DNA from: Perna viridis | Lineage: Eukaryota | Assembly: GCA_037379345.1 (NCBI GenBank) | Contig: CM074519.1 | Span: 42,266,851-42,330,850 of the forward strand | Direction: 5' to 3' | Length of the DNA: 64,000 nucleotides | In this document: positions 16,201-57,989 of the stretch, piece by piece | How positions within the stretch are numbered: position 1 is the stretch's first letter | Layout: each line of letters starts with the position of its first letter | Program-made: the position numbers and the translations under genes | Notes under the pieces: model-generated | What the model was told of the DNA's origin: nothing | The model's input: only the letters and a program-made list of their open reading frames with translations | Databases searched by the model: none

Positions 16201-17358
16201 TATAAAGGGAATGACCATTCATAGATTAGAACTCATGACTGTGTTAATTGGGGTGGGATCTTTGTTCTTTGTGAAAAGTGAAATATGTTGAGAAATAGAA
16301 AATACTTACGTATGGACAGATTCTCAGTGCGTTTTAATATGGATATTCTGTTTTAAGGATTTATCGACGTTCGTGAGACTTGCCGAAATTAAAATTTATT
16401 CAGGGATAACATTTGGATATGTTCATTCCAGTGAAAACCCTGCAGACGTTACTTCCCGTGGCTCAACTGTACAGAAACTCATAAGATGTGTATTGGTGGG
16501 ATGCAATTCAAAATTTATTAGAAGAAATTATCTTTATTCATAAATTTTCGAAGATGGCTGCTAGGAAGGCTGCAATTAAAGCGGTTAGAGGTGATATCAC
16601 TCCAGATGGATACGAAGATGTGAGTGATGACGACACTGTGTTTGACTTGATCGAACAACTAGAATCAGTGATGAATTTAGTGTTGATGAATTTTTAATCA
16701 ACATAAAAAAAACTAGAAAGCTAAGGAAAACAATTCTCCAGATATATATGATGACATCTATGCTGAGAAATCTGAAGAAAATAATAACGTTAACGTAACG
16801 ACAAACAAAACAACCGAAGACATCACAGTTATAAGCAGCGAGGAGAAAAATATAGAACAGTCGTTAGTGACTCCACATTGCAATTTAAAACTCATATATT
16901 GACTCTAACTATAACCCGCAAAGTCAAACTATTAGGCGGAGGAGCAATAGGAGAAGAGTATGTACTAGACTAGGACTTTTCTGAACATTTTGATTGATTC
17001 ATTTCTGCTTGGAAGTGCCGGTGTCGCGAACGGCGAATGCTATTTAAAGACAGTCCGTTGAACTATGAACTTTGAATGAGAAAAATTTATTGTTTTTTGT
17101 ATTGTAATTTGTCTTCGTTCTTTCTCCATTCTTTTTTAATACTAAATGGATATTTGTAAAGTAATATTTACTCCGTTTTCTCCGTTCTTTTTATAATTAC
17201 AAAGGATGTTCGTGTAACAGAGTTGTTGGAGCTTTGTTTTAGTATTAATACCATCTGTAAATCTGTTAAAGTGTGTTTTTTTCACGATGGATACTAAACG
17301 GTAATACGAAATTTGTGTTGTATTGTGTTCTATAAAAAAAAATACAGTGTTCTCAACA
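13297..17358 (+). mobile_element. Degenerate BEL/Pao LTR retrotransposon (integrase largely deleted)
   Basis: LTR start TGTCGCGAAC at 13297 and 17022 (54-bp match, 1 mismatch); CCHC knuckle remnants, LFDSGS protease, VHYIPHHAVI/KLRIVYNAS/ADIEKAFLQV RT, FCDAS and NPADVTSRG RNase H; 3' LTR ends ...CAACA. Confidence 0.9.
13351..13547 (-). mobile_element. Naiad-type PLE 3' fragment inside the BEL 5' LTR
   Basis: Family 3' UTR abuts the truncated LTR. Confidence 0.9.
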
Positions 17359-18276: not shown

Positions 18277-18639
18277 GGCACAATCGACATAAACCGTCAT
18301 TTTTTTAAAGAATTATTTTTTAATATATAAATACTAGTTTCAAGCTCATAGTCTAATATTACATGTAAACACATTTTTAATTAATGATCTCAAAATTTGG
18401 TTGCAACGTTGAGGTGAGTTTATCACTGAAATACATCAAGTTCTATTTTTATATTTATTCCAATGAGGCATCTCTGAATATTGCATTGTTTTCTCACTAA
18501 TTCCGCTTTATTTTTCACTCGATATAAACACAAATTCTTTATACACATGTAAACATAGCCCATGTATCTTATCAAAAACAGATAGTACTTCGATTATAAA
18601 TGGTATTATTCAGTGCGTGATCTATCTGCTGCATATTTC

Positions 18640-19285
18640 AAACCCCTGTAAATTGTTTAATCAAAATATAGAAATAAAAGACTCCTATGTTTACTTGGGT
18701 CTTTTATTTGATTACAATGGACATTTTGTCCAAGCACGGAAAAAATTGGTTGATCAAGCTCAGAAATCTCTTTATGCACTATATAAAAAGATTCAAAATA
18801 TTTCCATTCCGATTGATCTGCAATTAAAATTGTTTGATGTATTGGTTGTTTCTATTTTGACATACTCTTCGGAAATTTGGGGTTTGAAAAAAAGGCTAAT
18901 GTTGAAAAATTACATCTACAGTTCTGCAAACGTATACTGGGTGTTAGATCCTTATCTTTTAAAATTGAAGTTGAGTTACCGGATAAATTTTTGTAGATTA
19001 AGGGCATGTAATATAAAGTTTCCCATTGAAACGGGGAGGTGGAGGAATATCCCAAGGGAAGATAGAATATGTAGAATTTGTGGAACTGGTCTTAGGGACG
19101 AATATCATTATTTTTGTGAGTGTAATAATAATGTAGTTTTAGACTTAAGAAGAAAGTTTATACCATCATATTATACGAGGTATCCAAGTAGAGAAAAATG
19201 TATGGCATGATAAAATTTTGCAATATACAGGTATTAATAAATGTGTCGATATTCATGCAAAAACTGCAAAAGATGTTTAATTAGA
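18640..19285 (+). mobile_element. CR1/L2-group LINE ORF2 3' fragment
   Basis: YVYLGL, LKLFDVLVVSILTYSSEIWG, IETGRW...RICRIC...DEYHYFCEC. Confidence 0.8.
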
Positions 19286-26770: not shown

Positions 26771-27267
26771 TAAAATATGAGGCTGAATTAATGGTTTTTA
26801 AAGTGGCCTATACATCAAATGGTTGTTTAGGGAGAGGGGGTATATGCGATGCGTAAAGTCCCCGTTTTAAGATTGTTTAAACACATAAACTCATCTATTT
26901 ACTTGAGACTGATATAAAAAAATCTAACTTAACAGTATTATGATCAGCCATAAAGACAGCCTAATAAGTGTGTAGTAACAGATCATTACGAAGTGTAACT
27001 AAACATTTACCGGTAAATGTCGAACACGTCCACCACAATGGACAAAAATGTCGTCGATAATACAAATTAAGCATTTTTAAAACATTTTGTAAAACATTTT
27101 TTGTTTGTACTTGTAGAAAGTGATGTCGAATAGATTTTTACAAAGTACGTAAAATGTCTCCTAAGATCTAACAAAAATATCATTTCGGGGGTAACAAGCG
27201 TCCTTGTAAGACCCTCTAAAATAGTTGTTAAGTTTGGAAGTGGATAGTTGCACTTCTTCATTTCTTG

Positions 27268-27884
27268 ATCTACACTTAGAAATCGATGGTAAAGGAAAAC
27301 TATTGACCAAACTTTACGACAAACGTGATAACTTTTCATTCAAAATTGTCAACTTTCCTCTCATCTGTGGCAACATCCCTTCAGCGCCTGCTTAGGTGTT
27401 CATATCACAACTCATACGTTATGCCAGAGATTGCCGAAACTACGCACTAAAACTCTAACAAATAGGCTTCTGGGACAGGGTTATGTTGCTACAAGATTGA
27501 AGTCATCACTACAGAAGTTTTATGGTCGTCATCATGAACTCGTGGATCGTTATGGTGTATCCATCTGCACCATGAAAACTGATTTATTCAACGGGTCATA
27601 GTTTTCCTTTCCTCGTTTGTCTATCCCGGACTTGACTTTTTTTATGAGCAACTCGGCGGGTGTTTCTAGAAAAGCAGAGGACGCTTACCCTACCGGTGCA
27701 CCCGGTCCATGCTCCCAGTTTTTACAGGAGTCCGAGTTGCTCATTTGCATTTGTTACTTTGTATGTATGATTTTAGTTACTTTATGTTCTTTGTTGTGTA
27801 TGTCTGTTTTCCATGTTTGGTCTTTGTCCCTAGATTGCATTCTTTTGATTACCGCTATAATCTTCGTTCCCTTGATTACTCTTT
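27268..27884 (+). mobile_element. Naiad-type PLE 3' fragment
   Basis: DLHLEIDGKGKLLTKLYDKRD to the family 3' end. Confidence 0.9.
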
Positions 27885-29482
27885 CTTGTCATAAACGGGG
27901 AATCAGATAAAAGTGAAGAAAACAATCGTGTAGTATGGTCCTGTAAAACTTTTCCAGTTGTCGTTGTTTTATGTTCTTGACTGTACATAATATGTGTAAA
28001 TTTCAACACGAGAAAAAAATGAATCAGTATTGTTCAAACTTTGCATAGTGTTTTATAAACATATGCATCTCTTTTTATTGTTGACTGATTTGGACAAATA
28101 TTCAATATAAAGTTTATCGATCTAGCTAAGCCATTCGCCTTCAGTAGTTCAATTTTGCTTAAAATACAATATTAATTGAAGATATTTATGTCCGGACTAA
28201 TATTTGAAGGTTCAGATCTTGTCTGCGACCATACAATGTACTAACATGGAAGCTTACGTGGACTCAATGTTCAACTCTTAATATTTATATTAGGTACTTT
28301 TAAACCATACATTTAATTTATGGATATATTTGTCGTTGTTAAATTTGAATATTCAATTCAAAATATGACGGCAAACAATCATTAAATACAGACATAGTTA
28401 AAAGGAAATGTGTAACCCAGATTAATAGACCAGGAAATGAGATGGTTAGACAATGGATTCAAAAAACATCTGTGCCACCCTGTGTATGTCACGATTTTGT
28501 CATGTTTCCTTTAGCAATCGAAAAGGGGAAACTATATATTTAAACATTCCATTGTTTTATTGTTCAATATTACGACCGTGTATATGCCATATCGTTAAAT
28601 TGTGAGCTCAATATAAGATATACATGTTGCTATAAAATAAATCCCAAACTTTTCAAGTTATATTTTTGTTAATTGTAATAATAATTACAAACAATAAGGG
28701 GCGTACTTAAAAACACTTTTTATAGGAGTCATAGGAGTAATGTGCCAAGCCAATCTTGTACATTGTATGTTTTGTTTTACTAGAAATGCTTAAAGAATGA
28801 TGTATGAGTACAGTTGTTAACCTTAGTTATTATCGATGAAAACTTATGGTTTTATATATGGATATCCCTGTGTTCCAGAATTGGCCGAGCTCTGTTGTAA
28901 TATATCATTTTTATTGCAGACTTATTTTTGTCTTGCAGACATTGTACGCCTTACTGCATAGGAACAATATCTAGTCAGTGTAAAGAAACTTAATTTGATT
29001 GTTTATATCTCTATTCAGTAAGATAGATAGCCTCCATAGCCTTTCTTGGTACTGTGCCGCCAATAACGCCAATCGGTCCGCAATCCGGAATTTAAACAAT
29101 GCCAAACTAAATAATGCTTTGGTGATTTAGCATATATATATTTGACCGTTAGTAATGTTTGCATGACCAACTTTGGACCCGGGACTGTTTACGCTTGTTC
29201 ATAAACAGTTTGTTGTTAATAAAGAGTAAACGTCCGAAAGTTATCCATGACTTGTTCAAAATTTAAACAAAATCCTAAACAAACCTAATTAATGATAAAC
29301 GGGCGATAGAACACAGTCTCTGTATTTGAATCATTGAAATAGCAACACTTTTACGTTGCATGTTGACCTTAAAATTGCAGGAAATACTATACTTCATGCT
29401 TATAATTTAGTGTAAGGAAATAATTTGGTTATAGTATAAATCTTCAATTTAATAATAAATTTGCTCGCCTGAATGATATAAC

Positions 29483-29522
29483 ATGGAAGGGTTGGCAGAA
29501 TTTATACTTTGTATTGTGACTG
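29483..29522 (+). CDS. Exon 1, signal peptide (MEGLAEFILCIVT)
   Basis: ATG, short hydrophobic stretch and phase-1 donor G|GTGAG, in phase with exon 2. Confidence 0.6.
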
Positions 29523-31477
29523 GTGAGGCATTTTTGTACTTATTTTAAATTTGAAATGCAATCAATAAAGTGAAGATAACTTCAGCACCAGCAAGGCATA
29601 TAACATCAAAATATTCACTTTCATGTATTGCATTTATGTTCTGTAGATACCTCTGTTATTACATTTTTCTTACCCATCCAATATGATATCATTTCATTTG
29701 TGCTGTAATGCATGTAAAAAACACTCAACATGTTAGTCATTACCAAACAATGAGTAAAACAGTTGTATGTGTTTTTCCTACATGTACCTTTGACAAAGTT
29801 TAAACTGGCAAAAATGAACGCGGTTCCATTTTAACAATAGATTGTAAAAAGTCCTTGTTTACTTGTTTATTCTTATATTCTCGTATACAAATTATCAAGA
29901 AAGGGAAAAGAAGAGAAACAATTTAAAAATATAACCTTGGATTATTTTGGTATTTTTTTCCAATTGCTTTGATTTTGAATGTTTTACTTGTAATGAACGT
30001 AGAACTTTTTATCACTGATTTCTTATTCGTGATATAGAGGTAAAACTAATAAGGCATTTACATGTATAGCTTTGTGAATTTATATTGTTGAATCTATGCA
30101 TGTAAATAGACCATTGAAGAAGAAGAAGAGACGGATTCTCACCGGCAAATTCAAATGGAATGATTGTTTTATTTCTTCTACAACTTTATTCGGAAGGCAG
30201 ACATGTCAAAGTATTATTCGTTATTGTTTATACTGTGGATAGTATTTACGACAATAGTTTCGTTGTTATTGTAGTGAACACTATAACAATAATTGATATA
30301 TTTGCTGCGAATGGATCTACAGTAAACCTCACTTGTGTCTTTACAAACTTGTCCTATGGTGACACAATCACTTGGCTAGTGCCACCGGACCTTCACCAAT
30401 ATTCAGTCGGGGATTCAGTAATGAGTAACTATTCGCAATTGAAGCTGCAATTAATAAAGGAAAGATCGACAACGTTACAGGTTTTTAACTTTTCACAGCA
30501 TAATACGGGAGAGTATCGCTGTCAAACAAAGAAGGAAGAGATTTGGTTTGAGGTATTTCTCAAAGGTATGACGCTGGTGTTTATGACATATATCATCTAT
30601 GAAGGCATAGTATTGCATTTTATCAAAATATCAATATCAATTTTGGCAAAATCACTGGGGGAAAATAATAAAGGAACCAAGATTCGAGCAAAAGTTAACA
30701 AAGTTAAACGTAGACTAGACAGAAAAAACAGACACACACAGCAAAGTAATCAAAATAACACGCACAAAGAAACAAAAAATAAATACGTAACCCGGATTCA
30801 ATTACATACGGGTGTATGGGCCATGTGTACCGATAGATAAACGTTATCTACCTTTCTAGCACACCTGCTGGGTTGCTCATATCGACGGTAAGAAGGAGAA
30901 ACTGCAACACAGGTTTTTTTTCAAATTTGCTCAATATATTTACATATTTCTAGACTTGTTTTATAAATACAGTTTCATCATTATCAAACCAAGATTAATA
31001 TATCTTATATACGAAAAAATCCTTTTTTTTAGTGCCTCCTCATGTCAGCATTGTAGACACTGTTTTGAATAGCTCTATAAATACAACATTGGAAGGTGTA
31101 GCCCACGGAGTGCCAGACTCTTACAGCTACAATAGCTGGGTCCATCTGACAAACAATAGATCAGTTGTCAGACATTTGGCTAGTGCTAACAAAGTATCGG
31201 TTTTGTCTAACAGTTATGAAGATAGTGGTATTTACATTTGCAATGTGTCAAATGGAGTGATTGATGATAATGGCAATGAATGGACAACAGCTGAATATTA
31301 CATGAATTATTCAGGTACAATGTATGTGATTGGTATAAGACTGAATATTTTAAATTCACTTAATTATTATAACCCTTTAAATAAGCGGTTTTGTATCTCC
31401 TGCTGTCTATAATGTTCATATTAAGTAAATCAAGGATTTATTCTTTATATGTATATTTTATTATTTTAACTTACTAT

Positions 31478-31560
<83 letters not shown>

Positions 31561-34500
31561 AAGTGTCTAAAAAATTCGAAAAGTTGTTAGAACTGTCAAA
31601 TTTGCAAAGTAAATTTAATTTCTGGTCGTTTCCTCCGCAGGACTCGAACTCATACCTATGTAACATTTATGGCAATACCGCCTGCACAAAGTCCAGCGCC
31701 CTAGACCACTCGGACAGCTACTCTATATTAAAATATAGCTTTTGCTGGCCGGGTCATTCCTCCTCGTAGGATTAATCTAGGGCTGTAACTTAGTACACGA
31801 TGTATGGTAATACGTGACAGTTCATCTGGGTGTATAATATATAGGATAGAAGATCAAATTAAATTCATGATGCGTGTCACAACAAAGCAATATTATACAA
31901 CGTCTCAGAATGTGACGTCTCTATTCGCTACACTGCTCCATCGGATCAAAATGATACAGGGAAGATAATGTAAACTTATAGAAGGGTATGAAAAATTCCC
32001 AACGATGTTAGAACTGTCAAATTTGCATTTCAATCAATGTGAATGCCGTTCATAGAATGGTTTTATAATATACATGTTGTATTATATTATCAGACAAAAC
32101 CAGTTTTGCAAAAAAATTATAATCGCTACGTTTGTATTGTACTGTAGGTAAATCAGTTTTCACCAGAACAAACCTAAGAGCCCAGTTTGGACATATATAC
32201 CTGTATGTTGTAAGTCCTCATCCTATATCGGTGGCGTGTGTGTTTAACGAACCCAGAGAAACATATGGACCGAATGACTCCTGCCATGCCAAGTTTAACA
32301 TAAAGAATACTTACACCTTCATACAAGACATGTTATACAGTAACATAGTAGTCTATGGCTACGAAATACTTCTTGAAGCAAAACTGAACGTGGAGATTGA
32401 TAACCGAAATGTAACAGCTCAAGTAAAGAATAAAGAAGGTTGTAGCACGTATGTTGTACATTTTACAGCGCCAGGTATATATTATTGTCGTTGCTTATTC
32501 TGTATCTTGGGAAAACATCGTTTCATGTTTAAATATTATTACATTGAAAGGTCAATAAATATGTACTTAACTTTTATTCTGTCTTTCCTCATGTAGGGAC
32601 TTGTATACCATATAATTTATAATTGACTATTAAGCAGCATTGATGTAATATAACATTTATTATTAACCTTACAATCTTTTTATAAAATCGGCTTTCTTTT
32701 ATAAATAATTTAGTTATAGTGTAAAATGGTGAACATTTGCATTATGGAGTGGTCAAACGAATTAAAAACAATTTGGTAATTGGCTAGAGAAGGATCATAA
32801 CATTTTTTTTTCTCTTCAGTCTCTAACAATTAAAACCTAGGCAGGAAATATTAATAGAGACATAGAGTATGATACTGACTCGTGGCTGCTTGATATGGGA
32901 AGCACGAGGTGGTTCCTTATATTACCAATCACTTTTCCTTTAATCTGACTACTTTCCCAACAGTAAATTTAGTGGTGTGATTTTATTTAAAAAACAGTTT
33001 TACGTCAAGATCAATATTTCAGTTAACATTTTATGTAGCCTTTGCCAAGGGACACGTACAGCGAACATAAAACTGATTGCACTTCAGTTCTTACCCAAAT
33101 GTAGGTAATACGTCAAAGTGTTGTCAATGAATTAATTCCGCGGTATCCTATAGTTATCTTTGCGTTAGCGAGTTGCTAATCCATAGACAGCGGAATTTAA
33201 TTATCGATCACAGATGATGTTATCAGTTACGGTATGTAAACCATAGATAACAGTCCATGAACCATAGATAATGTTGTTATCCCATAGATATCTGAGTTCT
33301 GATTAATTTCGCGTGTCATTCATATATGTACGATAAACAACACCATGCGTCATACGTGTTCAGATTTAGGTTCATTGGCCATGTGTCAGGTTAAAAAAGA
33401 TACCTAAGTCAAAGTTTCTTTTTTCTTCTTGTAAGGAGTAGAATTTAGCAGCTTTATAAGTAAACTAATAACTTATGACTTTGAATACTACAATTATATT
33501 ACCAAATAATATCAGCAATGTTTCTTAGTGATTGTATACATGATTATATTAATTGATTGTCTGGTAGTAAAATGCAGATAGCATTACATGTTAAAGCCTG
33601 GTTAAATAGCCTGTCAATAATAGATAGGTTATTTGACTAGCATCTGCCTAGCATCTAAAGTTGCTACACTTAAACAAAATCATAGACTTGTAATTAAAAA
33701 TAAAATTAATTTAAAAACTAACATGTCTATGACAGGATGAATATAATTATATGACTCTGAACGATGACTGATTGAGTCATGGGCGTCAAGTGTTAGAAAT
33801 GAAATTTGAGCGATGAGTAGTATATCATGAAATTATCGTTCAATGCACATTTAAGAATTCTAAAATGGCCTAAATTACATGAGACAAAATATTTACTATT
33901 TACAACATTTTCCATTATTAATAGAACCTGTTCTAAATCAAATTGCATTGAATTAGTGTAAGCAACTGTCACGAGTTATGGCAGATAAGATAAGTAAGGA
34001 CAGATTTCGTATTTCTTTGTCAATGCCTTGGAGAGTTGCTGTCAGGATCAGACATATTTCTGATCTACCTGCTGTCATATACCGGTAATAGTTTCCTTTC
34101 AGGATAATAGCAATAAGAGGTGATCGCAAGTGTATCTTCAGTTTTTATGTGTATTCTATTTTATTCGCTTCGCTATAATGTGTACAATGTATTTGTTTCT
34201 TGGTTTTACGTTCAAGGCCATATACTTGGTTATAAGGTATTTTGAAATGTGTGATTGTGTTTGTGTTCGCATCGGTATCTTTGCTGGTAGTTCACGAGGT
34301 AATATTTGTAAAATTAAAAACTGATATTTTATACAGTGAAATATATATGTATTAGCAATAAGGTGTACACTATGTAAGTTTGCAAAGTAAAGATTATTTC
34401 GTTCTGAACTTCGTGGTCGATGCTACGAGCAATATAATTTTACAGAGTTTTAAAGGCCACATCCGTAACATAAGGCAGTAAACAATATTGACAGAAAACC

Positions 34501-37500
34501 CAATTGAAAGAACAATTTCATTTTTGTAGAATCAAGGTAACGCATTGAACGAGTATTTGCATTTACGTGTAAAGGAAGACAACTTTACACTTAAATGCAA
34601 ATACTCGTTCAATGCGTTACCTTGATTCTACAAAAATGAAATTGTACTTTCTATTGGTATTTCTGTCAATCTTTTTTGAAGGTAGGAACATTTTTGCTAT
34701 ATTATTTTTTCAGAGATATGAAAGTACATAATAAGCCGTTTAAAAACTAAATATTTTCATATTTTTGTGTTCAGCTTACCCGTGATTAAATCTTTGTACT
34801 GACTGTTGTATGTTTTTTTTTTACAAAACTTCTATGTATCAGTTTAAAGAATTTTTAATAGTGTTTGTAATTATTATTTTACTTTCACAATATGCCTGCT
34901 CTAAAATTATTTGTATATCTAAGCTTTATTACAGCGTTAAGATACAAAACGTCAATTTCGATAATTATTTTGTATGCCGACGAAATAATATAAAATTTAC
35001 AAATAGATGTATCGTATAGAAAATTCAGTTAGATGATTGAAATATTTTAGGCACTTTATCAGATGTTCATTACGTTCAGAATGGTAAAAGAACGTGTTTA
35101 AAGTGCGCTGTTGATGATTCCATAGATAAGATCACTTGGCTTGGTCCACCCAATGATATGGCTTATGCTGTTGGACAAGAAGTGGATATGGTCTATCCGT
35201 TTATAGAGGTCAATGTCAGTAATAATCGTAGTGAGTTGTGCATAAGTAAAGTATCAAATAAACATCTCGGAACGTATACATGTTATGGAAGTGATTTTAA
35301 TAACATATTTCGTTATAATGTAACAGAACAACGTAAGTAAGACTCACTAAGTATTTATGTATTTTTTATTTACTGTAAACGAAAACGTTAAGAATGTTAT
35401 ACAATTGCTGACTTTTGTTGTGGTTAATGTCTATTGTTATTAACCAACCACCCAAAATACCTTAAAATATATCAAAAACCGACCAAATGGTATAAATTCA
35501 AACCGGACATCTATACGGTGCCAATATGATAGAGTATTCAAGGGAACCAAGGTTATAGCGGTAATGTAATACAGGGACAAAGATCAGACATAAAAAACAG
35601 ACACACATAACAAAGAACATAGAGTAACTAAACTCATACATACAAAGTAACAAAAGCAAATGAACTCGGACTCAACTAAAATCTGGGAGCATGGACCAGG
35701 TGCATCGGTATGGTAAGCATCCTCTGCTTTTCTAAAAAACATCAGCCGAGTTGCTCATAAAAAGTCAAGTCCGCGGGAGAAGAAAGAGGAAAGATAAACT
35801 ATGACATATTGAACAAATCAGTTTTCATGGCGCAGATGGATACACCGTAACGATCCACGAGTTTATGATGACGGCCATAAAACTTTTGTAGTGATGACTT
35901 CAACCTTGTAGCAACATAACCCTGTTCCAGAAGCCTATTTGTAAGAGTTCTAGTGCGATACAAAAAGTCTGCGTAGTTTCGGCAAGCTCTGGCATAACGT
36001 ATGAATTGTGATATGAACACTCCATACGCAGGAGCCGTCATCATGAACTCGTGGATTGTTATGTTTATGGTGTATCCATCAGTACCATGAAAACTGATTT
36101 ATTCAATTGGTCATAAATTTCCTTTCCTCGTTTGTTTACCCCGGACTTGACTTTTTATGAGCAACTCGGCGGGTGTTTCTAGAAAAGCAGAGGACGCTTA
36201 CCCTACCGGTGCACCTGGTCCATGCTTCCAGTTTTCAGTGGACTCATTTACTTTTGTTACTTTGTACGTATGATTTTAGTTACTTTATGTTCTTTGTTGT
36301 GTATGTCTGTTTTCCATGTCTGGTCATTGTCCCTGCTTTGCATTCTTTTGATTACCGCTATGACCTTGGTTCCCTTGATTACTCTTATTAACATGTATTA
36401 TTGACTTTGGGAAAACATACATTCCTCCTACCTGTAGGGCTCTCTCTCACTTTTATTGAGATAGAAGACAACAATTGTTTAATTCTATTATCCAATCAAA
36501 AGTATATGTAAACCCCGTATAAAATAGAAAAAATCACGTTTTCTTAATCATTTTATTACATTTGTGTAATGATTCCCCATGTCTCATAATATATTACACA
36601 AGCCATTTCCGTTGTCATACAAAGTCAACATTATTTTTGTTCATATCACTGGCATTGTTATTTTACCATTATTATTTATATATATATATATATTATAGAA
36701 TGTACGAATTCGGGGCATTTGTACAGTGTAGGAAACACATTTACAAGCAGTCTCAGCAAGGGTAGTTGCAGTTTCATTATTTACAACTACCAATCATTTT
36801 TACTTTTTTTTATTTTAAAGATTGTATCCCTTAATTTATTTTCATTTTGCAAAGTTTCTTAAAGACTGTAATTGAAAGTGGATTGAAATTTCTAATCATA
36901 TATGATTTCAAACATAGCTGAGGTAAAAAAAGAACAACTTGTATGAATTTAATCTGATCATATCCGAGTTTACAACTGATGAATTGAGTCCAAATTTATT
37001 ACACAATGGGCATTAGATGTATTCTATGTAATAAGTTTTAATTATTTGTTCCACTAAGCGCCATTCACATCTTGGTCAATATCCATGCACAATTATGCTT
37101 TGGTTGATTTTTACAGGTAACCCAGCGAACATGACAATTGTCAACGCAGGAAGAAACGGACAATTATGTATAAATGAAAACGAAGATGTAGCTTTGGATT
37201 GTATAATTACTCAAGGTGATCCGATAGGCACGTTACAGTGGGTTCTAGATAATGAAATTATGGTTTGGAATTACACAGACAACTTAAGACTAGAATTAAG
37301 ATCAAAAACATTAGAAAGTGGTAGTGTTTATAGATGTGAGGCTTTAAATGAAGAAGGTGGAATAGTGCTGACCGAAAACGTTGTCCTTCATATAAATAGT
37401 AAGTGCATGCAAGATGAATCGCCCCTTCTGTCGATATTATATAATCAATGTGTCTAAATCTAAACTATGAAAACGTCAAGTCAAAAGTCTGTATTAATTT

Positions 37501-40500
37501 ATGAAGATGTGCTTAGTTTAGTAAACACATTTCTTTTATTAAATGATAAACATATCAGCAAATACGTACACCTACGTAAGAAATTAAGAGGAATGAACAA
37601 AATGAAAACATAATAATATATGAAATTGAATATGAATAATCAAAGATTGCACACCCCATCCCCCAAAAAAATACTGAAGCACTTCCGCTCCCTTGTGATA
37701 GTATAGTGGTATAATGTGCTCCTGAAAGTTTCTACTCCTTTCTACGCACTTATTGCAAGTTATTACAGATGGAAATGGTGGAATGAACTAAGTTTGGTCG
37801 CGTAGATGTTTGTATTTGTGAGAGCTAAAATAAGTCGGTACTAGTACAATATCTACTAAATATAACGAAATGTACATGTTATAGCACTTTATGAAAGCAA
37901 GCTTTATAGAAACAGATTTAAAAGAAATATTACCACGTTTTCTCTGCCTTGTACTATAAGTATACAAATATATATTTTGTTGTCCCTTGTTTATTTGAAA
38001 ACATTGGCGAATATCACGCAGATATTAGTATCATTTCAGCCAGATAATAAACTGTTTACTATATATATATATATATTGTTAGGTTTTAACTTCGTCTAAA
38101 ATAAACCATTTATTGATAGTATCCCCACCATCTATTCCGACCCGTGTACAGTTCATTGAATACGAAACTAAGATTTTTGTGAAGTGGACGCCAGGTAAAG
38201 GTACCAGTCAAGCAAAACAAACGTATACAATATAATATAAGAAACGCGGGGAAAGACGATGGATTGAAATCAGCGATATTAAATCAACAAATGTCAACAT
38301 AAAGGATCTAGAACCAAATACAGTTTACTTTGTGCAACTGTACGCCATTAATCCTGGTGGAATGGGAAATAAACACACGAATTTATGATGAAAACAGGTA
38401 TTACGTTTGTAAATCAAGATTCCAGCATGGAAAATTCTTCGTCCTTTAGGTAGATTATAGCTTATTTGTTTTGTCTTAAGATTGTCCTGACTTGCATTCA
38501 AATACAGGCCTTTGATAAACATATTGAAGGGTATAAAAAGATAAGGTTACCGAATTTATCATTTTAGAGATAATTGAGGCTTTGTATAGTAGTCAATTCT
38601 CTTCAGCATATTTTCTGTACTGAGCACGTATGCAAAGACAAGTACCGAACGTAATCAGAAACAGTTAAAATGAATTTTGATTGATTTTTCTGGTTTAACG
38701 CCCAAGCGGCAATATTTCAGCTGTATTCAGGCGATGAATATGAATTGGATGAGAAAATGAATATGAAATGATGATGATGATGAAATGAAAAAGAGGGATG
38801 GAACACAAAGATAATACGGTCGACAAATTTTGATTGCCTTTGATAGAAAAAAGAAGTAATGTAGCATCTTTCCCAACACGATACAACACCATGGTTTGCG
38901 GTCAGATTTTCAGTATGTATTATAGACTGACAACCCCAGCATGTAACACGCCATGGGTACCACATTCCTGCAGCTGGGGCACACAACTAGATGCTCTGTG
39001 GACAGAAGGCCCTAGGGTTCTAAGCATAATTTAGTTGCCTTTAACGACAAGCTTAGCGCTGGCCTATTCATTTGACACCGGACCCGCACGGGGCTTACAG
39101 TTTTGAACAAAATTTGCTACTCCAAAATACATACGACCTTACCATCTTTTAAGATGACAGAAATGAATATTCCGTGTAAAAGGTATGCTCAACCTTAATC
39201 CGTTTTCCTTTTTTCACAATCGCTAAAAGAAAGTAGTACAATGAACTCAAAAATACAGATACGTCAATGTGTAATTATTTGAAATAAGATTAAATACTGA
39301 CAATCAATTTTTGATTTATGAATTAATCGGTTTGTTTTATTGTTTAGGAAAAAGATCGTTAGACCATATGATTGGTCCACTGATTATCACGTGCGCTGTT
39401 GGTGGTATTTTGATTATAGTCCTGCTACTTTGGACATGTAAGTGTATAATTGGTAAATGAAAACGGATTTTGTTTACCATCTTTTTATTATAAATTAATT
39501 ACGCTTAATATTAAACACGACAAAAAGAAAAAGAGATGTGGTAATAAATATACACAATATATAAATATAAATAATTCGTATGAAATTTTTGTTGTAATCT
39601 TTTAAGAGTAATCAAAGGAATCAAGGTTATAGCGGTAATGAAAAGAATGCAATCCAGAGACAAAGACGTGGCAAACAGACACACACAACAAAGAACATAA
39701 AGTAACTAGATTCATACATACAAAGTAGCAATAGCAAATGAACAACTCGAATCCACTAAAAACTATGAGCATGGACCTGGTGCACTGGTAGGGCAAGCAT
39801 TCTCTGCTTTTCTAGAAACACACGCCGAGTTGCTCATGAAATATCAAGTCTGGTACAAAGTAACAAAAGCAAATAAGCAACTCGGACTCCACAGCAGGTG
39901 GACCAAGTGCACCGTGATGAATATTGGAGATCACTTTACATTTCTTCCGGAGCAATTTAGTTTTAATTTGCTGTCGTGACTTTTGTTTTCAATCAGAGTG
40001 TTTACANNNNNNNNNNNNNNNNNNNNNNNNNNNNNNNNNNNNNNNNNNNNNNNNNNNNNNNNNNNNNNNNNNNNNNNNNNNNNNNNNNNNNNNNNNNNNN
40101 NNNNNNNNNNNNNNNNNNNNNNNNNNNNNNNNNNNNNNNCGAATTTCATGTTTGGGTATTACGCGATAAATATATTTTTTCATCGACATACTACTTAAAC
40201 TAATTATGAATATATCAGAGACAAATACTTTTAATTACAGTTACATTTTAGAATTAAAGTTTTTATTAAGGTTTGACAATCTAAATTGCGAATGAAATTT
40301 TAATGATAGTGCATTAAATTTCTCAATGAATTGTTCATCAGATTTTTGTCTTTCCCTTTAAGGTATTAAAAGAAAACGACGTCGTATAAACTCACGGTTC
40401 GTATAGAATGATAGTTTTATAGATATTGAAGGACTAGACATGCTTGATAGTTACAGTAAAGATTGGCCGTATATTCTGTAGGTCAATCATGACCAGGCTA

Positions 40501-41286
40501 AGAAAACAGAAAAGAAAAAAAATACTTAAATAACTCAAATTGATCACACAAGTATAGATAATTTTGGACTTGAAAAGAAATGCATTAAAGATTTACGATG
40601 AAAATTCGAATTCCTGTACTGCAGTTATCATATTATATTAAACACAAGGTATTTAAACCATACACAGCTAAACCAAATGGCATGCTAAAGGACATGATGC
40701 TTGGTAAATCAAAATGACGTAGTTCAATTTATAAATAGCTTCTTCAGCAATTCCACTTCAAAATTCTAAAATAGTCATTATACCCACTTTTTACTGCTGG
40801 TGTCTGACAAATGCAAATTTAAGGTCACTTAAGTATTGTTGCAATATTTGTGGTGCTTTCGTTACAATTCATTATTTCAGGCTTCAAGACACAACAACAA
40901 ACGAAACAAGGACGACAACCCATTACGACGAAATAGAAAGCATGTCTTTACGTCCTCAAGATAACGTGATTAGAGTTGTCACAGAAACTCAGGAACTCTG
41001 TGAATGTCCGATGCCAGATTATTCAGAAAGGAAAATGTCGACTACGCCTTTTCATCAAAACCAGATCAACGACAGTATTGAACAAGATTCATTGGGATAT
41101 ATTAAGCCATCTTCTATTACATTTGATCATGATATACCTATAACCAATTTAAGCCTACCTGTAACACGACAAAGGGTATCCTCTTCAAGTGATGACAGTG
41201 AAACTATAGTGAAATCAGACGCAAAATATGAATCACTTGTAATAAAACAAACATCTTCACATCAATACGTTAATATAGAGTGCTAA
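29483..41286 (+). CDS. Spliced Ig-superfamily type I membrane receptor (signal peptide, 5 Ig-like domains, disrupted FN3, TM, tyrosine-motif tail); about 677 aa if the FN3 exon is skipped
   Basis: Ten exons with GT-AG boundaries and compatible phases: 29483-29522, 30275-30565, 31033-31314, 32148-32474, 35051-35332, 37117-37398, [38120-38397 disrupted], 39348-39437, 40363-40396, 40881-41286. The sum without exon 7 is 2034 nt, open to the TAA. Confidence 0.8.
30275..30565 (+). CDS. Exon 2, V-like Ig domain
   Basis: VNLTC...ITWLVPP...LQVFNFSQHNTGEYRC; TAG acceptor, G|GTATG donor, 291 nt, phase 1-1. Confidence 0.9.
30655..30905 (-). mobile_element. Highly diverged Naiad-type 3' UTR in intron 2
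   Basis: GGAACCAAG, AAAACAGACACACAC and GTTGCTCAT landmarks in family order. Confidence 0.55.
31033..31314 (+). CDS. Exon 3, Ig domain (B-strand Cys position occupied by Gly)
   Basis: LEGVAHGVPDSYSYNSWVH...YEDSGIYICNVSNG; poly-T AG acceptor, G|GTAC donor, 282 nt. Confidence 0.9.
31493..31558. repeat. (AT)n microsatellite
   Basis: Direct reading. Confidence 0.98.
31560..32027 (-). mobile_element. tRNA-derived interspersed element with 47-bp terminal direct repeats
   Basis: Repeats at 31560-31606 and 31981-32027; minus-strand A box (GTCCGAGTGGTCTAG) and B box (GAGTTCGAGTCC) within 31625-31721. Confidence 0.7.
32148..32474 (+). CDS. Exon 4, divergent Ig-like beta domain
   Basis: Open 327-nt phase 1-1 exon, GKSVF...IYLYVVSPHP...NVTAQVKNKEGCSTYVVHF; CTGTAG acceptor, G|GTAT donor. 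Confidence 0.75.
34487..34670. repeat. Long near-perfect inverted repeat (88-bp arms, 8-nt spacer)
   Basis: 34487-34574 versus 34583-34670, about 5 mismatches. Confidence 0.95.
35051..35332 (+). CDS. Exon 5, V-like Ig domain homologous to exon 2
   Basis: CLKC...ITWLGPP...YAVG...LCISKVSNKHLGTYTC; TTTTAG acceptor, C|GTAAGT donor, 282 nt. Confidence 0.9.
35531..36037 (-). mobile_element. Naiad-type PLE, left arm of a head-to-head inverted pair
   Basis: APAYGVFISQ...MKTDLFN plus 3' UTR on -. Confidence 0.9.
36036..36387 (+). mobile_element. Naiad-type PLE, right arm of the inverted pair
   Basis: RT end plus 3' UTR on +; CG overlap at the junction. Confidence 0.9.
37117..37398 (+). CDS. Exon 6, C2/I-set Ig domain
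   Basis: VALDCIITQGDPIGTLQW...ESGSVYRCEALN; TTACAG acceptor, A|GTAAGT donor, 282 nt. Confidence 0.9.
38120..38397 (+). pseudogene. Exon 7, fibronectin type III domain with premature stop and frameshift
   Basis: PPSIP...VKWTPG...YTI*YKK...W...IKDLEPNTVYFVQLYAINPGG; TAA at 38233-38235; length 278 nt (not a multiple of 3). Confidence 0.85.
38677..39094 (-). mobile_element. Second copy of the SINE-like family (intron 7)
   Basis: Colinear with 8994-9505, same 5' end GCCCCGTGC. Confidence 0.85.
39348..39437 (+). CDS. Exon 8, transmembrane segment
   Basis: MIGPLIITCAVGGILIIVLLLWT; TTTAG acceptor, T|GTAAGT donor, 90 nt. Confidence 0.85.
39603..39912 (-). mobile_element. Naiad-type 3' UTR with partial internal duplication
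   Basis: Family sequence; the CAAAGTAACAAAAGC...CTCGGACTCCAC block recurs. Confidence 0.85.
40007..40139. other. Assembly gap (133 N)
   Basis: Direct reading. Confidence 1.
40363..40396 (+). CDS. Exon 9, basic stop-transfer micro-exon (CIKRKRRRINS)
   Basis: Pyrimidine tract plus AG; the phase 1-2 exon exactly bridges the TM exon and the last exon. Confidence 0.75.
40881..41286 (+). CDS. Exon 10, cytoplasmic tail with tyrosine motifs
   Basis: TTTCAG acceptor, phase 2; HYDEI, DYSE, GYIKP, KYESL, QYVNIEC*. Confidence 0.85.
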
Positions 41287-41834: not shown

Positions 41835-42590
41835 GGACATTCCAGTTGATCGTTTGTTTGAATTTTTCAAGAACCTTAACTCTGCTCTATTATTATTATA
41901 TATTATTATAACTTCCTGTTATTAATGTACAATAGGAGAATCGGTTGCATTATGATCTTAACTCGCACATAAAAGAAGAAAAGATTCTCAATTATATCAT
42001 AAAGCTAAAAACAATTGTAAAGCTGGTGGAGAGAATGCAATTATAAACAAAAATATCAAAACAACCCCAAGCAAGTTTATAGATATTTATTGAATGCTCT
42101 TCAACCTTACATTTGATACCGGTATGATATCGGACACCTGGGTGGTTGGAAATATTCTACCGATATACAATAAGGGTGACAGGTCCGATCCGATTACCAT
42201 TGTCAGCTGTCTTGAAAAACGTTTCACCGCTGTCTTAACCGAGAGTCTGAATAAATACTCTGATTACTTCTTGATCTTAAAAGAAAACCAAAGTTGTTTT
42301 TAAAAAAGTTGCAGTACAACGGATAATTGTGCTATTTATATGCCTTTTTTGAATTACTGAAGCATAGAAATAAAAAAATGAATTGTGCATTTATCGAATT
42401 AGAAAAGGTTTTCGATCAGGTATGGAGAGAAGGTCTATGATATAAACTCATTCTGTCTAATGTTAATAGTAAAATATTAAATGTAATCAAAAACATGTAT
42501 AAAAATATCAAATTGAATATTGTTTATAATAATTGTAAGAATTGTGTCTGGCAAGGGGAAAACATGTCCCCCTTTTTATTTGCCTAAGCT
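41835..42590 (+). mobile_element. CR1/L2-group LINE RT fragment
   Basis: LFNLTFDTG..DTWVVGNILPIYNKGD, ENQSCF, CAFIELEKVFDQVWREGL, QGENMSPFLF. Confidence 0.75.
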
Positions 42591-42599
42591 TATTTCTAT

Positions 42600-43975
42600 A
42601 CCCTCGATATCAATGACCTAGCCACACAAGCAGAAACAGCTGCAGAAAATAGAAATATGAGAGATCTGTACATTATCACAAGAACACGGTCAGAAAAATC
42701 GTCTGCACCTATAAAACCAATAAAAGATACCAAAGGAAATGTCCTGACATCCGCTGACGAACAAAAGTCTAGATGGAAAGAAAACTTCGAAAAACTTTTG
42801 AATAGACCGAGACCAGAAACAACGGCAGATATACCATTAGCAGAACATGAAAGTCCCATAACCCTGGTCACATCAAGTTAAAATGAAATAAGAAAAGCCA
42901 TACAATCTTTAAACAACAAACAACTAGCAGGACTAGATGGAATACCAGCAGATGCAATAAAATATGCCATCATCAAACGTCCAAAAACGGTGACCTAAGT
43001 CAACGCAAAACTATCGCGGTGTTATGGTATTGTCAACACCAGGAAAAGTTTTCAACAAAACCATTTAAGAAAGAATAAAGACGTCATTAGACAAACTTTT
43101 GAGAGACCGTCAAGGTTTCACAAAGGATAGATATTGCACAGACCAAGAAGCAACTCTCAGAATCATCATAGAACAATAACTGAAATTGTACTCTTCACTT
43201 TACATCATTTTTACTGACCTTGAGAAGGCGTTCGATAGTGAAGATAGATCAGCACTTTTGAACATTATGAGGCAAAATTTGTAGCAATTAACAATACACA
43301 TCGAGGCATGAACTATAAGGTACTTCATGAATAACGACAAAAATTAACACTCCTGGACCTGCTCGATGACTCGACTTTGCCAACGATTTGGCCCTACTTT
43401 TACATAAATAAAGCAACTTGCAGGAAACAGCATCAATACTGAAAAAAAAACAGCTGCCACGACCGGTCTCAGAATAAAAGGTAATGAAGATCACCACCAG
43501 CGTGACTGATCCAATAAAGCGGAAATATTGAAGAAGTAGAAATATTTAAATATCTTGGCATTAAAGTCTACACCATAGGCAGTGCAAATAATGATATCAA
43601 AGTAAGAATATGCAAAGCAAAAACAGCATATAACCAATTGGAAAAAGTATGGATCCCCAGAGAGTTCAGCAAAATCACCAACATAAATAATCCAACGAAA
43701 AAGCCGTTCTCTTATACAGATCAGAAACATGGAGAACAACAGTAGCATAAGATAATACCATCCAGTCATTCGTCAACAGTTGACTTCGCAAGATTTCAAT
43801 TATCTATTGGCTCAATCGCATTCCCACCAACTACCTCCTCCGATGCAGATCAATAAAAAGAAAGGACAAAATCAATTGCGAAAGAATCCCGGAAACATAA
43901 CTGAACTTCGATGGAGGCAGATTGTCAGGGACCTATACTCTGTGCAAAACAACAGACATAAGTCAAGTAAGTCTC
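42600..43975 (+). mobile_element. RTE-group LINE, degenerate
   Basis: AETAAENRNMRDLY, EQKSRWKENFEKLLN, DLEKAFDS, LDFANDLAL; tail TAAGTCAAGTAAGT. Confidence 0.75.
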
Positions 43976-43989
43976 GATGAGAGCCATTC

Positions 43990-45715: not shown

Positions 45716-46525
45716 GGAGTAATCAAGGGAACCAAGGTTATAGCGGTAATCAAAAGAATACATACACAACTAAGAACATAAAGTAACTAAAATCATACAT
45801 ACAAAGTAACAAAAGTAAATGAGCAACTCTGACTCCACTAAAAACTGGGAGCGTGGACCAGGTGCACCGGTAAGGTAAGCGACCTCTGCTTTTCTAGAAA
45901 CACCCACCGAGTTGCTCATAAAAAGTCAAGTCCGGAGTAGACAAACGAGGAAAGAAAACTATGACCCGTTGAATAAATCAATTTTCATGGTGCTGATGGA
46001 TACACCATAACGATCTACGACATCATGATGACGACCATACATCTTCTGTAGTGATGAATTCAATCTTGTAGCAACATAACCCTGTTCCAGAAGCCTATTT
46101 GTTAGAGTTCTAGCGCGATACAAAAAGTCTGCGTAGTTTCGGCAAGCTCTGGCATAACGTATGAGTTGTGATATGAACACTCCATACGCAGGTGCCAAAG
46201 GGATGTTGCCACAGATGAAAGAAAAGTTGACAATTCTGAATGAAAAGTCATCGTAAATTCGTAAAATTTGGTCATTGGTTTTCCTTTACCATCGATTTCT
46301 AAGTGTAGGTCAAGATATGAGGCTGACTTGACCGTGTCTGTAGTATCCTTTATCTCAAGTTCTTTGAGGTAGATGCGATGTATCGAATCCCCGAAATTAG
46401 GATTGATTAAAGATAATACGTCATCTATATAGCGGAAAATGAGATTAAAGGATCTAGCCAAACGATATTCATTCTTTCGGATCAAATCAGCTATAAAGTC
46501 AGCCTCATACGAGTGAAGGAGTAGG
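45716..46525 (-). mobile_element. Naiad-type PLE RT 3' fragment
   Basis: FRYIDDVLSL, DTTDTVKSASYLDL, AYGVFISQLIRYARAC plus UTR. Confidence 0.92.
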
Positions 46526-46741
46526 TAAAAAAAAGATATATTTCTTCAAATTGTATGGGTACAAACAGTTTCAATTTCCGTATGGTCCAAATTTGCTACT
46601 TGAAATATTAAAAATGGTAATATTAGTATCTTTTTGGTGGTTGATACTCATATTTTAGTCAAATTCTTAAAAGTGACATATTTTTACAAAGAGTAGGTGT
46701 GCAAACGCTTTTAATATACCTATTGGTTTTAAACTTTTTTA

Positions 46742-56215: not shown

Positions 56216-57201
56216 CTATAAAATATAAATACTAAAAAATTACTACCATTACATGGAGAGAATTATGAATAAAAAAAGATATGGACTCGACCCAAAACAG
56301 GATATCGACTGCGAATTGCACCGCTAAAAGCTTGTCTAATTTAGAAAGGGGGAATCCCATTATTAATGTTATTGAAAACATTTTTAAAACACATATACTT
56401 AATTCATATTGACATTTAACATAGCCATACATTTTATCTTAATTTGTTTCTCGTCTATCACGAAAACTTCAGAAAAAAAAAACCTCAGTAATTATTATAC
56501 GAGATACTTAAAAAAAGTGGAAATCATGGGTATAGGGTTAACCATTATAGAAAGCTTCGCTGAGTGCAGCATGATAGGACCACAGTGGTCAAACCCTGTA
56601 GATACCTGTATTTTATGTTCATGAGCGGGTGTACGTCAAAACATGGAAGGTACTTTAATGTGGCATTTTCTTTTTGCCTTTCTACGAACTAATGTTTTAT
56701 CAAAAGATAAAAACAGAAAACAATCATTTATAGTTCAATACTACTTCTCTTTACGATCTTCGTGGACTCACCCTACTCTTTTTTGCGGAAAATTATTTTT
56801 TCATGTGTCCTTAGACATGCTACATAAATGAAAGTTTTATTGAATCAATTTACATATTTTTATTCTAAAATCCTAAACATATGCACTTCTATGGGAATAT
56901 TTATGACCTGAAAGGTTTGGGCAAATGTGGACACAATATCAGTTTTGGAAATACTTCAAAATAGGGACTTACAATTCATTATGGACACGACCACTGGTTT
57001 GAACACTATATTGCAGAAAATTTGAAATTCAATAAAAATTTTCAAACAACGACGACAGCGCAATACCAATATACGAGCGCTTTTTTTTCGTTATAAGAAT
57101 GTCCTCAATTATTCATCGTATAGTATGGACCATATGGCAGAATCAATGTTAAAGAAATACTTGTGCATAACTTTAAGTAAATAGAATGTTATACATTTTC
57201 A

Positions 57202-57989
57202 AAGAGTAATCAAGGGAACCAAGGTTATAGCGGTAATCAAAAGAATATAATCCAGGGACAAAGACCAGACATGGAAAACAGACATACACAACAATGAACA
57301 TAAAGTAACTAAAATCGTAAATACAAAGTAACAAAAACAAATGAGCAACTAGAACTCCACTAAAAACTGGGAGCATAGACCAGGTGCACCGGTAGGATAA
57401 GCGTCCTCTGCTTTTCTAGAAACACCAGCCGAGTTGCTCATAAAAAGTCAAGTCTGGGGTATACAAACGAGGAAAGGAAAACTATGACACGTTGAATAAA
57501 TCAGTTTTCATGGTGCAGATGGGTACACCGTAACTATGCACGAGTTCATGACGACGACCATAAAACTTCTGTAGTGATGACTTCAATCTTGTAGCAACAT
57601 AACCCTGTTCAAGAGGCCTATTTGTTAGAGTTCTAGCGCGATACAAAATGTCTGTGTAGTTTCGGCAAGCTCTGGCATAACGTATGAGTTGTGATATGAA
57701 CAATCCATACGCAGGTGCTGAAGGGATGTTGCCACAGACGAAAGGAAAGTGGACAATTTTGAATGAAAAGTCATCACGTTTGTCGTAAAGTTTGGTCAAT
57801 AGTTTTCCTTTACCATCGATTTCTATGTGTAGGTCAAGATATGAGGCTAACTTCACATTGTCTGTAGTATCCTTTATCGCAAGTTCTTTGGGACAGATGC
57901 GATGGATCAAATCCCCGAACGTTAGGATTGTTCAAAGATAATACGTCATCTATATAGCGGAAACTGAGATTAAAGGATCTAGCTAAACG
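57202..57989 (-). mobile_element. Naiad-type PLE RT 3' fragment
   Basis: FRYIDD, YDKRDDF, ISQLIRYARAC plus UTR. Confidence 0.92.

Follow-up and report, generated by a model that had tools for sequence, protein, structure and literature searches.

Two loci lie side by side in the 64,000 nucleotides of Perna viridis DNA analysed here (the window): a duplicated 5' block of a gene that we call gene A, which brings along its upstream region and exons 1-4 without the transmembrane (TM) and tail exons, and a gene B that runs in the order signal peptide, V, Ig, FN3, TM, tail and comes to 472 amino acids when intact (Table 1). The original prediction, a single gene with a 677-aa product, is a fusion of these two, the gene A copy and gene B, and the gene model is corrected accordingly. 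Nine in-frame exons with GT/AG ends do give exactly 677 amino acids, provided that the FN3 exon is omitted; of the ten exons proposed as phase-compatible, those nine are, and the FN3 exon is not. Because that exon is 278 nt long and contains an in-frame TAA, the ten-exon product ends early. What had been overlooked was a second signal-peptide exon, that of gene B, and a microhomology at which the DNA of two loci is joined; the five-Ig architecture came from running two genes together and treating FN3, wrongly, as optional.

Table 1. Features of the two loci, in positions of the window
Feature	Position	Strand	Remarks
Duplicated 5' block of gene A (upstream region + exons 1-4)	28264..32735	+	without gene A TM and tail exons
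Gene A copy, candidate first coding exon	29483..29522	+	13 codons, phase 1, weak signal peptide
Gene A copy, V-like Ig exon	30275..30565	+	open; Pfam V-set E 1.2e-5
Gene A copy, Ig exon (exon 3)	31033..31314	+	Pfam Ig match
Gene A copy, exon 4	32148..32474	+	one codon shorter than gene A's; 5 genomic matches
12-bp microhomology, junction of gene A block and gene B locus	32724..32735	.	end of gene A homology
Inverted repeat, locus-specific	34489..34677	.	54-bp perfect stem 34512-34565/34592-34645; gene B ATG in right arm
Gene B signal-peptide exon (predicted)	34636..34681	+	15 codons + G, phase-1 GT donor
Gene B V-like Ig exon	35051..35332	+	Pfam; AlphaFold pLDDT 92; Foldseek Ig matches
Gene B second Ig exon, I/C2-like	37117..37398	+	Pfam; contigs show exact exon ends
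Gene B FN3 exon, broken in assembly	38120..38397	+	TAA 38233-38235; one base short near 38370
Gene B transmembrane exon	39348..39437	+	donor 39437 seen in X3 record 13
Gene B basic stop-transfer exon, 34 nt	40363..40396	+	33 letters between TM and tail (X3 record 13)
Gene B tail exon	40881..41286	+	contigs in X1 and X3 cover it

Exons 1-4 (29483-32474) are a truncated copy of gene A, an apparently orphaned front half. Gene A itself lies 157 kb upstream, with its own membrane segment and an ITIM/ITSM-type tail; the block matches it (G000:C9:42137063-42142853) at 81-96% identity, reaches some 1.2 kb further upstream than exon 1 and loses homology to three gene-A-type loci at one and the same point, 32735. 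Its V-like exon encodes a sequence 87.5% identical to that of gene A, with 14 amino-acid-changing and 6 silent differences. The other exons are less tidy: the candidate first exon was not among the picks of a signal-exon scan, exon 3 matches an Ig family as predicted but has Gly for the first Ig cysteine (Cys in gene A), and exon 4, which had been called Ig-like, has no Pfam match and a fold prediction at pLDDT 34 that rested on three near-identical rows. None of 14 candidate homologues of exon 4 held up in a word-index search (a weak negative). The Pfam run bore out Ig families for exons 2, 3, 5 and 6 and fn3 for the 3' part of exon 7, all under the curated cut-offs. Six other loci of the family keep the order V-Ig-FN3, and none of the six has exons 2-4 in front (1.7 to 24 kb of upstream DNA examined).

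Gene B begins with a signal exon that is also open in a second copy in the assembly (C10), where its three changes all exchange one hydrophobic residue for another, and exons resembling it sit 5' of paralog V exons; the transcript contigs show no direct splice between it and the V exon. The inverted repeat around its ATG (MFE -123.7 kcal/mol, z -20.7) is present solely here and in the C10 copy, and every Rfam match of the hairpin falls under the gathering score. That long hairpins might be a conserved first-exon feature of the family is an idea that we rejected: such a hairpin is absent from 14 of 17 upstream regions, and the stems near paralogs B2 and F derive from dispersed repeats (82 and 57 matches).

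What kind of receptor would this be? The V exon of gene B encodes an immunoglobulin superfamily domain: the model is an Ig beta-sandwich (Foldseek Ig matches at TM 0.7-0.85) with eight strands of at least three residues, C' present and C'' not clear; C18, W29, L62, Y75 and C77 are invariant across all 12 aligned V domains. In the Pfam run on the predicted exons, V-set scores are 17.9 and 25.9 bits against a cut-off of 26. The top PDB matches of the gene B V domain, by sequence and by fold, are NEGR1, IgLON5, OPCML, ZIG-8 and Dpr/DIP, and one could accordingly read gene B as a receptor for cell recognition or adhesion in neurons or epithelia, used as IgLON, Dpr/DIP or ZIG-8 proteins are, with tyrosines serving cytoskeletal adaptors or endocytosis; low expression would fit, and YxxL/I also suits AP-2 sorting signals. 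We consider this unlikely, as the matches are generic (14-24% identity, with antibody V domains scoring alike), no conserved orthologue was found, conserved wiring genes seldom show such rapid turnover of copies or so many null alleles, and the two tyrosines of the tail pair keep a constant distance, with an acidic residue always at -3.

The original prediction recognised no named orthologue, and tail, exon 4, FN3 and HMMER searches (weak negatives) found none either. A word-index search with the tail kept 0 of 115 candidates, the FN3 profile drew four generic FN3 proteins among 2088 candidates and nothing closer (both weak negatives), and the tail profile, run through a full HMMER scan, returned only three unnamed Logan proteins. 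For one-to-one orthology to nephrin, NCAM, IgLON or Dscam, word-index searches gave no named close homologue, and to our knowledge two Ig domains plus one FN3 match the domain count of none of them. The literature searched, mainly open-access, held no earlier description of the family; an entry in the supplement of a mussel genome or transcriptome paper is possible.

Gene B is transcribed, although sparsely, with a raw-read depth per exon bin that is mostly below 1 and at most 3.4. None of the runs with RNA-type contigs is registered as RNA, but the spliced joins identify these contigs as cDNA. Contigs spliced from V through Ig to FN3 come from three studies, those joining FN3 to TM from two and those joining TM to tail from one; the V exon is spliced to the second Ig exon in all three transcript-type runs, the GT..AG join 37398-38120 from second Ig to FN3 appears in three runs, X18 and X2 both have loose ends that match the FN3-to-TM join, and the letters of the stop-transfer exon are a loose end in X2 too. 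Joins of exon 4 to exon 5, or skipping FN3, are absent among the joins listed, for which at least three reads were needed. Their absence bears on the notion that the 677-aa product is real after all, a young chimeric gene in which exons 1-4, driven by the promoter of gene A, are spliced to the gene B V exon, past the signal exon and the broken FN3. All of its junctions are phase 1 and its product is open, the block carries DNA from upstream of its first exon, and the copied V exon has stayed open; but contigs over exons 3-4 bear the letters of gene A (three differences in exon 3, and the 3-nt exon 4 insertion of gene A in X1 and in both of two X22 reads), the X1 contig departs from exon 4 for 457 letters, X1 depth is 0 over 32612 to 35095, FN3 is spliced in wherever it is seen, and exon 3 has lost one core cysteine. 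We hold such a chimera to be very improbable.

The allele assembled here would yield no full-length FN3-bearing receptor. Its FN3 stop and frameshift are no assembly errors, an explanation that we rejected when a DNA-type contig proved identical across 38203-38410; they are missing from RNA-type contigs of other animals where covered, no single contig covering both sites. Those RNA contigs also include deletion forms, TM-skipped forms and two more FN3 lesions, and alleles of gene B differ by 1-5% and take several structural forms. The C10 copy, which is the second DNA form, has a 3.26-kb deletion that removes the 3' part of FN3, the TM exon and the tail; no gaps interrupt the sequence around it, which is collinear with C9 for 68 kb (93-97%), and it may be a heterozygous allele or a second locus. 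Over six exons, 39 amino-acid-changing differences stand against 17 silent ones, a near-neutral ratio that suggests weak constraint on the ectodomain. Is gene B simply a dying duplicate, its motifs inherited from a functional paralog and of no present use? Both assembly copies are disabled, other animals add further lesions, and the substitution ratio is what one would expect; yet RNA-type contigs of three studies are free of the window lesions where covered and are correctly spliced, the P0001 tail allele keeps its ITAM, and the motifs of the open tail match those of paralogs at about 35% identity. We give that reading very little weight.

Signalling would fall to the tail. The TM segment before it has no charged residue, and the five tyrosine motifs first noticed all lie in one open frame (40921-41277), among them THYDEI (ITSM consensus), GYxxP and D-x-x-YESL-x9-YVNI (ITAM consensus). 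The C-terminal YxxL-x9-YxxI is kept, as D-x-x-YxxL-x9-YxxI, in four of five open tails; among 200,000 shuffles of the tail it arises in 0.9% when a spacer of 6-9 is allowed and in 1.6% when 6-12 is, a frequency to be read with the pattern having been picked after the motif had been seen. Four of the tyrosine motifs are conserved in the family: tails of five loci align at about 35-40% identity, with Y15, D113, K115, Y116, E117, Y129 and I132 invariant, and D/ExxYxx[LI]x6-12Yxx[LI] occurs in 5/7 tails (P0003 and paralog E2 have no match), each time with a spacer of 9. The strict vertebrate ITAM spacer is 6-8 residues, which these tails exceed; the motif does satisfy the x(6-9) spacing given in the part of PMC9546547 covered. 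By the consensus D/ExxYxx[LI]x(6-12)Yxx[LI] in a single-pass tail, gene B is a putative ITAM-bearing receptor. Other parts of the first reading of the tail have fallen away: the DYSE tyrosine is in 1/7 tails (DHSE in P0001), and the YxN proposed to dock Grb2 is likewise in 1/7 and varies even among alleles (YVDI in P0001).

Could the tail of gene B inhibit rather than activate, THYDEI and the C-terminal tyrosines recruiting SHP2 or SHIP and not Syk, and make this an inhibitory or switch receptor? SHP2 had been named as a reader of the C-terminal pair, but those tyrosines stand 13 residues apart, a spacing that suits Syk better, against 23-27 in the ITIM/ITSM-type neighbours, and 23-27 is the known range for two-site SHP2 binding. 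The ITIM consensus [ILVS]xYxx[ILV] finds no match in the gene B tail. On the other side, TxYxx[VI] occurs in four of five open genomic tails, an SHP2 SH2 exon was found in the genome, and oyster CgNCAM1 signals through SHIP2 (PMC11841013, as far as covered). An inhibitory gene B strikes us as very doubtful. Syk itself was not identified among at least 43 SH2 matches in the genome, one of them named by search.

Transcribed gene B belongs to a family of mussel Ig receptors at the cell surface that is undescribed and turns over fast. As anticipated, the family is multi-copy, with at least 10 tail-bearing loci in the genome, many of them broken; the gene A tail has 10 further matches, and among those shown in frame 6/6 end in TxYxxI (a degenerate DSSGY pattern was uninformative, at 151 matches against 69 in a control). 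Inhibitory-type (ITIM/ITSM) and activating-type tails neighbour each other in one unstable cluster. That cluster likely turns over by birth and death, beside inhibitory-type relatives. The single five-Ig product is gone; what survives from the original prediction is an Ig receptor that is lineage-restricted, spliced and transcribed and whose tail conserves the ITAM consensus. We lean, by a little, towards an orphaned gene A front half beside a gene B that would be an activating immune-type receptor acting through Syk-family docking. Ligand binding by the V domain would cluster the receptor, a Src-family kinase would phosphorylate D-x-x-YxxL-x9-YxxI, and tandem SH2 domains of Syk might then dock and start ERK-type signalling, by analogy with oyster CgIgR (PMC6994640, the part covered); THYDEI and GYxxP could supply extra phosphatase or adaptor sites, and ITIM/ITSM relatives may counteract gene B via SHP2 or SHIP.

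The bivalve literature, in the parts covered, offers two precedents: CgIgR, an Ig receptor with an ITAM, and CgNCAM1, an Ig-FN3 receptor with ITIMs. CgIgR of Crassostrea gigas carries a cytoplasmic D/ExxYxxL/I-x(6-12)-YxxL/I and is reported to recruit CgSyk in haemocytes (PMC6994640, in excerpt). It is, like gene B, a single-pass bivalve Ig receptor with this ITAM consensus, which is all that the two share when compared by the short printed ITAM alone; the excerpt reports five Ig domains and no FN3, whereas gene B combines two Ig domains with a single FN3, carries ITSM-like and GYxxP sites in addition and sits in a tandem family. CgNCAM1, with three Ig domains, FN3, TM and two ITIMs, is inhibitory through SHIP2 (PMC11841013, same portion); its tail type resembles that of gene A and of gene H, another gene of the mussel cluster, whereas gene B has no ITIM. 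The Alr complex of Hydractinia, as described in the portion of PMC9546547 covered, is likewise a cluster of genes and pseudogenes with V-set, I-set and FN3-like domains, TM and ITAM (spacer 6-9) or ITIM tails. It belongs to a different phylum, its Ig domains often dispense with the disulfide and tryptophan that are invariant in our 12 V domains, and its tails are unalignable whereas mussel tails align; for mussels, no part in allorecognition is known. True pairs of the CEACAM1/CEACAM3 type have near-identical ligand domains (PMC5112662, in part), whereas mussel ITAM-type and ITIM-type genes share about 23-33% in V and separate with 90/91 support in a tree of FN3 domains. A near-identical ligand domain on opposite tails is absent among intact genes, and only the putative chimera of gene A copy and gene B would qualify: a paired receptor caught at birth, the microhomology having set the promoter and ligand exons of ITIM/ITSM gene A before ITAM gene B to make an activating twin of gene A. 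That is a long shot, with no joining transcript seen among the contigs; if true, the twin would stand to gene A as CEACAM3 to CEACAM1, within a cluster of mussel Ig receptors that oppose one another and among which null, FN3-deleted and TM-less forms segregate. With or without a twin, the mussel family clusters activating-type and inhibitory-type tails while null and structural alleles segregate among animals, and a molluscan balance of activation and inhibition, of the kind known from NK cells and colonial invertebrates, becomes testable with genes, peptides and natural knock-outs.

How many receptors do these exons encode? The original prediction strung all ten into a single gene, and on this point it fails, since the alignments split the window between two kinds of locus: positions 28264-32735 align to gene A, an Ig receptor 157 kb upstream (C9:42137063-42142853), and 32724-38250 align at 96-97% to a locus on contig C10 of the same genome, with 12 identical bases shared by the two alignments. 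When the junction was searched against the genome, its left half matched three loci and its right half gave one long and two short matches; both halves were spanned by the window alone. In intact gene A, exon 4 is followed by that gene's TM exon and by a tail whose two tyrosines lie in NYVEV and TNYADI, and the gene that follows here, gene B, has its own signal-peptide exon, also open in the C10 copy. Paralogs E1, F and D have a similar signal-peptide exon ahead of their V exon (none comparable was found for paralog B2), and at six other loci, with 1.7-24 kb fetched upstream, V-Ig-FN3 has no exon 2-4 block in front. As assembled, the window thus reads as two genes, a truncated copy of gene A's exons 1-4 (the A-copy) and gene B, which on these grounds is SP-V-Ig-FN3-TM-basic-tail, 472 aa when intact, the SP-to-V splice being predicted. 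The C10 locus lies in a gap-free stretch of 68 kb (C10:42115495-42182970), collinear with C9:42140343-42333581 at 93-97%, that lacks 138 kb of the C9 cluster and carries 15 kb not found there; it is either a segmental duplication or a misplaced haplotype.

Features of the receptor cluster and of the window (plain ranges are window positions)
Feature	Location	Description
Gene A	G000:C9:42139209-42144353	V-Ig-unknown domain-TM receptor, ITIM-like and ITSM tail
Exon 4	32148-32474	108-aa domain; four near-identical genomic copies
Gene B signal-peptide exon	34636-34681	phase-1 donor; 369 bp before second V exon
Inverted repeat	34489-34677	190 nt, near-perfect; right arm holds gene B start codon
Broken tail exon, another gene-B-type paralog	about 6074-6270	its Ig and FN3 exons at C9:42261668-42263510, just upstream of the window
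Paralog G	C9:37215581-37219695	Ig and FN3 exons, minus strand; broken tail exon, plus strand
Gene H	C9:42.52-42.53 Mb	gene A-type tail; V-Ig-FN3-TM layout as in gene B
Reverse-transcriptase/GIY-YIG-like retroelement	4256-5792, 27070-27907, 35802-36401, 45962-46545, 57176-57931	many decayed copies and 3' end; presumably Penelope-type
Fragmented ORFs	13673-16540	presumably BEL/Pao LTR retrotransposon gag-pol, as they read to us
Decayed reverse-transcriptase fragments	18467-19207, 42094-43977	taken to be LINE-like

The exons themselves are real, but they are not ten compatible ones: nine GT/AG exons give exactly the predicted 677 aa only if the FN3 exon is left out, and this exon, at 278 nt and with a TAA at 38233-38235, terminates the frame when included. 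The predicted domains were partly borne out by Pfam, which matches Ig in exons 2, 3, 5 and 6 and fn3 in exon 7, all sub-threshold, with no match for exon 4 or the tail; our searches turned up no homologue of the exon 4 domain beyond this genome (a weak negative), nor is its fold confidently predicted. The setting is a genome of 723 Mb in 46 contigs, and the window has a GC content of 30-37% and introns full of dispersed repeats, with copies of the GIY-YIG-like element, abundant in RNA runs, also inside those of gene B. The inverted repeat, present at 2 loci, is not a dispersed one; the C9 and C10 copies, elsewhere ~3% divergent, share an identical 54-bp core and loop, and in a transcript begun upstream the repeat would hide the AUG or yield double-stranded RNA.

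In eight run alignments to the window, gene B junctions are seen from the V exon to the tail: V-to-Ig and Ig-to-FN3 (37398-38120, GT..AG) are joined in all three transcript-type runs, which come from three studies; FN3-to-TM is joined in X18 and X2, and TM-to-basic-to-tail in X3, setting the TM donor at 39437. X22 reads on gene B's strand reach a depth of 0.73 in the bin containing the signal-peptide exon. Gene A is expressed in the runs aligned, and contigs over exons 3 and 4 match its letters; an X1 contig departs exon 4 for 457 letters, X1 depth being zero over the V exon's initial 45 bases, and the X3 contig on exon 2, with 13 differences from the window where gene A has 17, is exactly neither. 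Might an activating twin of gene A have been born here via exon shuffling? The DNA arrangement is present, but no A-copy transcript or exon 4-to-5 join was seen among the joins listed, at low depth, and we regard that origin as distinctly improbable. X2 holds an in-frame transcript in which FN3 is joined to the basic exon and the 90-nt TM exon is skipped (38120-40396; one contig, depth 6), possibly a soluble form, and a contig at 37206-37255 from a transcribed paralog whose second Ig exon is related; this paralog was matched to none of the loci fetched.

The FN3 lesions are present in DNA, because an X15 contig is identical to the window over 38203-38410. RNA-type contigs have G at 38233 (X3 and X2) and one extra base behind 38370 (X18 and X2), at all depth there, the two sites being covered by separate contigs and by no single one. 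A join at 38206-38389, seen in two studies and linked to 38164C, loses 182 window bases within FN3, keeps the frame and has non-GT-AG ends; it is likely a genomic deletion. At 38166, 7 bases are missing from one contig (depth 2). The deletion in the C10 copy is larger, 3.26 kb between about 38250 and 41506, and takes out the 3' FN3, TM and tail; given this deletion and the window's stop and frameshift, gene B is disabled in both copies of this assembly. Counted by single sites, copies or alleles differ at 39 amino-acid-changing versus 17 silent sites across six ectodomain exons; this suggests weak constraint on the ectodomain without thereby demonstrating positive selection.

The five tyrosine motifs do lie in a single frame (40921-41277), and paralogs proved numerous, the tail query matching 7 places in the genome (a further three, broken or distant, came from local profiles) and the FN3 query 14, 11 of them on C9. 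The strand arrangement of paralog G amounts to a local inversion. Five open tails, 35-40% identical when aligned, share invariant T-x-H-Y, S-S-D-x-S, K-x-D-x-K-Y-E and Y-x-x-I. The ITAM pattern D/ExxYxx[LI]x6-12Yxx[LI] is present, with a spacer of 9 every time, in the window, B2, E1, F and the gene B tail allele P0001, and absent from a further tail, P0003, and from paralog E2, whose FN3 is also frameshifted; it arises in 0.9-1.6% of tail shuffles, and its conservation among paralogs is the stronger argument for an ITAM. THYDE[IV], an ITSM consensus, occurs in four of five genomic tails and GYxxP in six of seven; the DYSE tyrosine and YxN are found in the window only among the tails compared, and at 41272 the X1 and X3 RNA contigs likewise have D instead of N.

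The gene A tail has 11 genomic matches, some of them in clusters at C9:27.4-27.6 Mb, C5:31.7 Mb and C13:10.8 Mb. Six loci show such tails in frame (one seen in the wrong frame is excluded), the first tyrosine ITIM-like (strict consensus in three), the second TxYxxI, 23-27 residues apart. The FN3 of gene H groups apart from that of the ITAM-type genes. The genome contains an SHP2 SH2 exon; Syk was not identified among the SH2 matches listed.

What, beyond the gene structure, splicing, motif conservation and turnover observed here, might gene B do? The V domain is confidently predicted as an Ig sandwich, and the domains it resembles most are generic ones from adhesion molecules and antibodies; these would suit an adhesion role, which we nevertheless think unlikely. 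We lean, by a modest measure, toward signalling, because of established immunoreceptor biology and of CgIgR, the model for these steps (PMC6994640): a ligand would engage the V domain, a Src kinase would phosphorylate the tail tyrosines and Syk would dock on the pair spaced 13 residues. ITIM/ITSM relatives may counteract it through SHP2 or SHIP, an opposition with a precedent in CgNCAM1 (PMC11841013).

Our sequence searches found no named homologue of the gene B family (weak negatives), and a literature search found no published description; the family is an undescribed one of a known kind of receptor. Botryllus receptors (PMC12582321) and mussel presence/absence variation (PMC10514466) are the subjects of other papers. 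In architecture and cluster behaviour the family is like Hydractinia Alr (PMC9546547) and the vertebrate paired-receptor clusters (PMC5112662).
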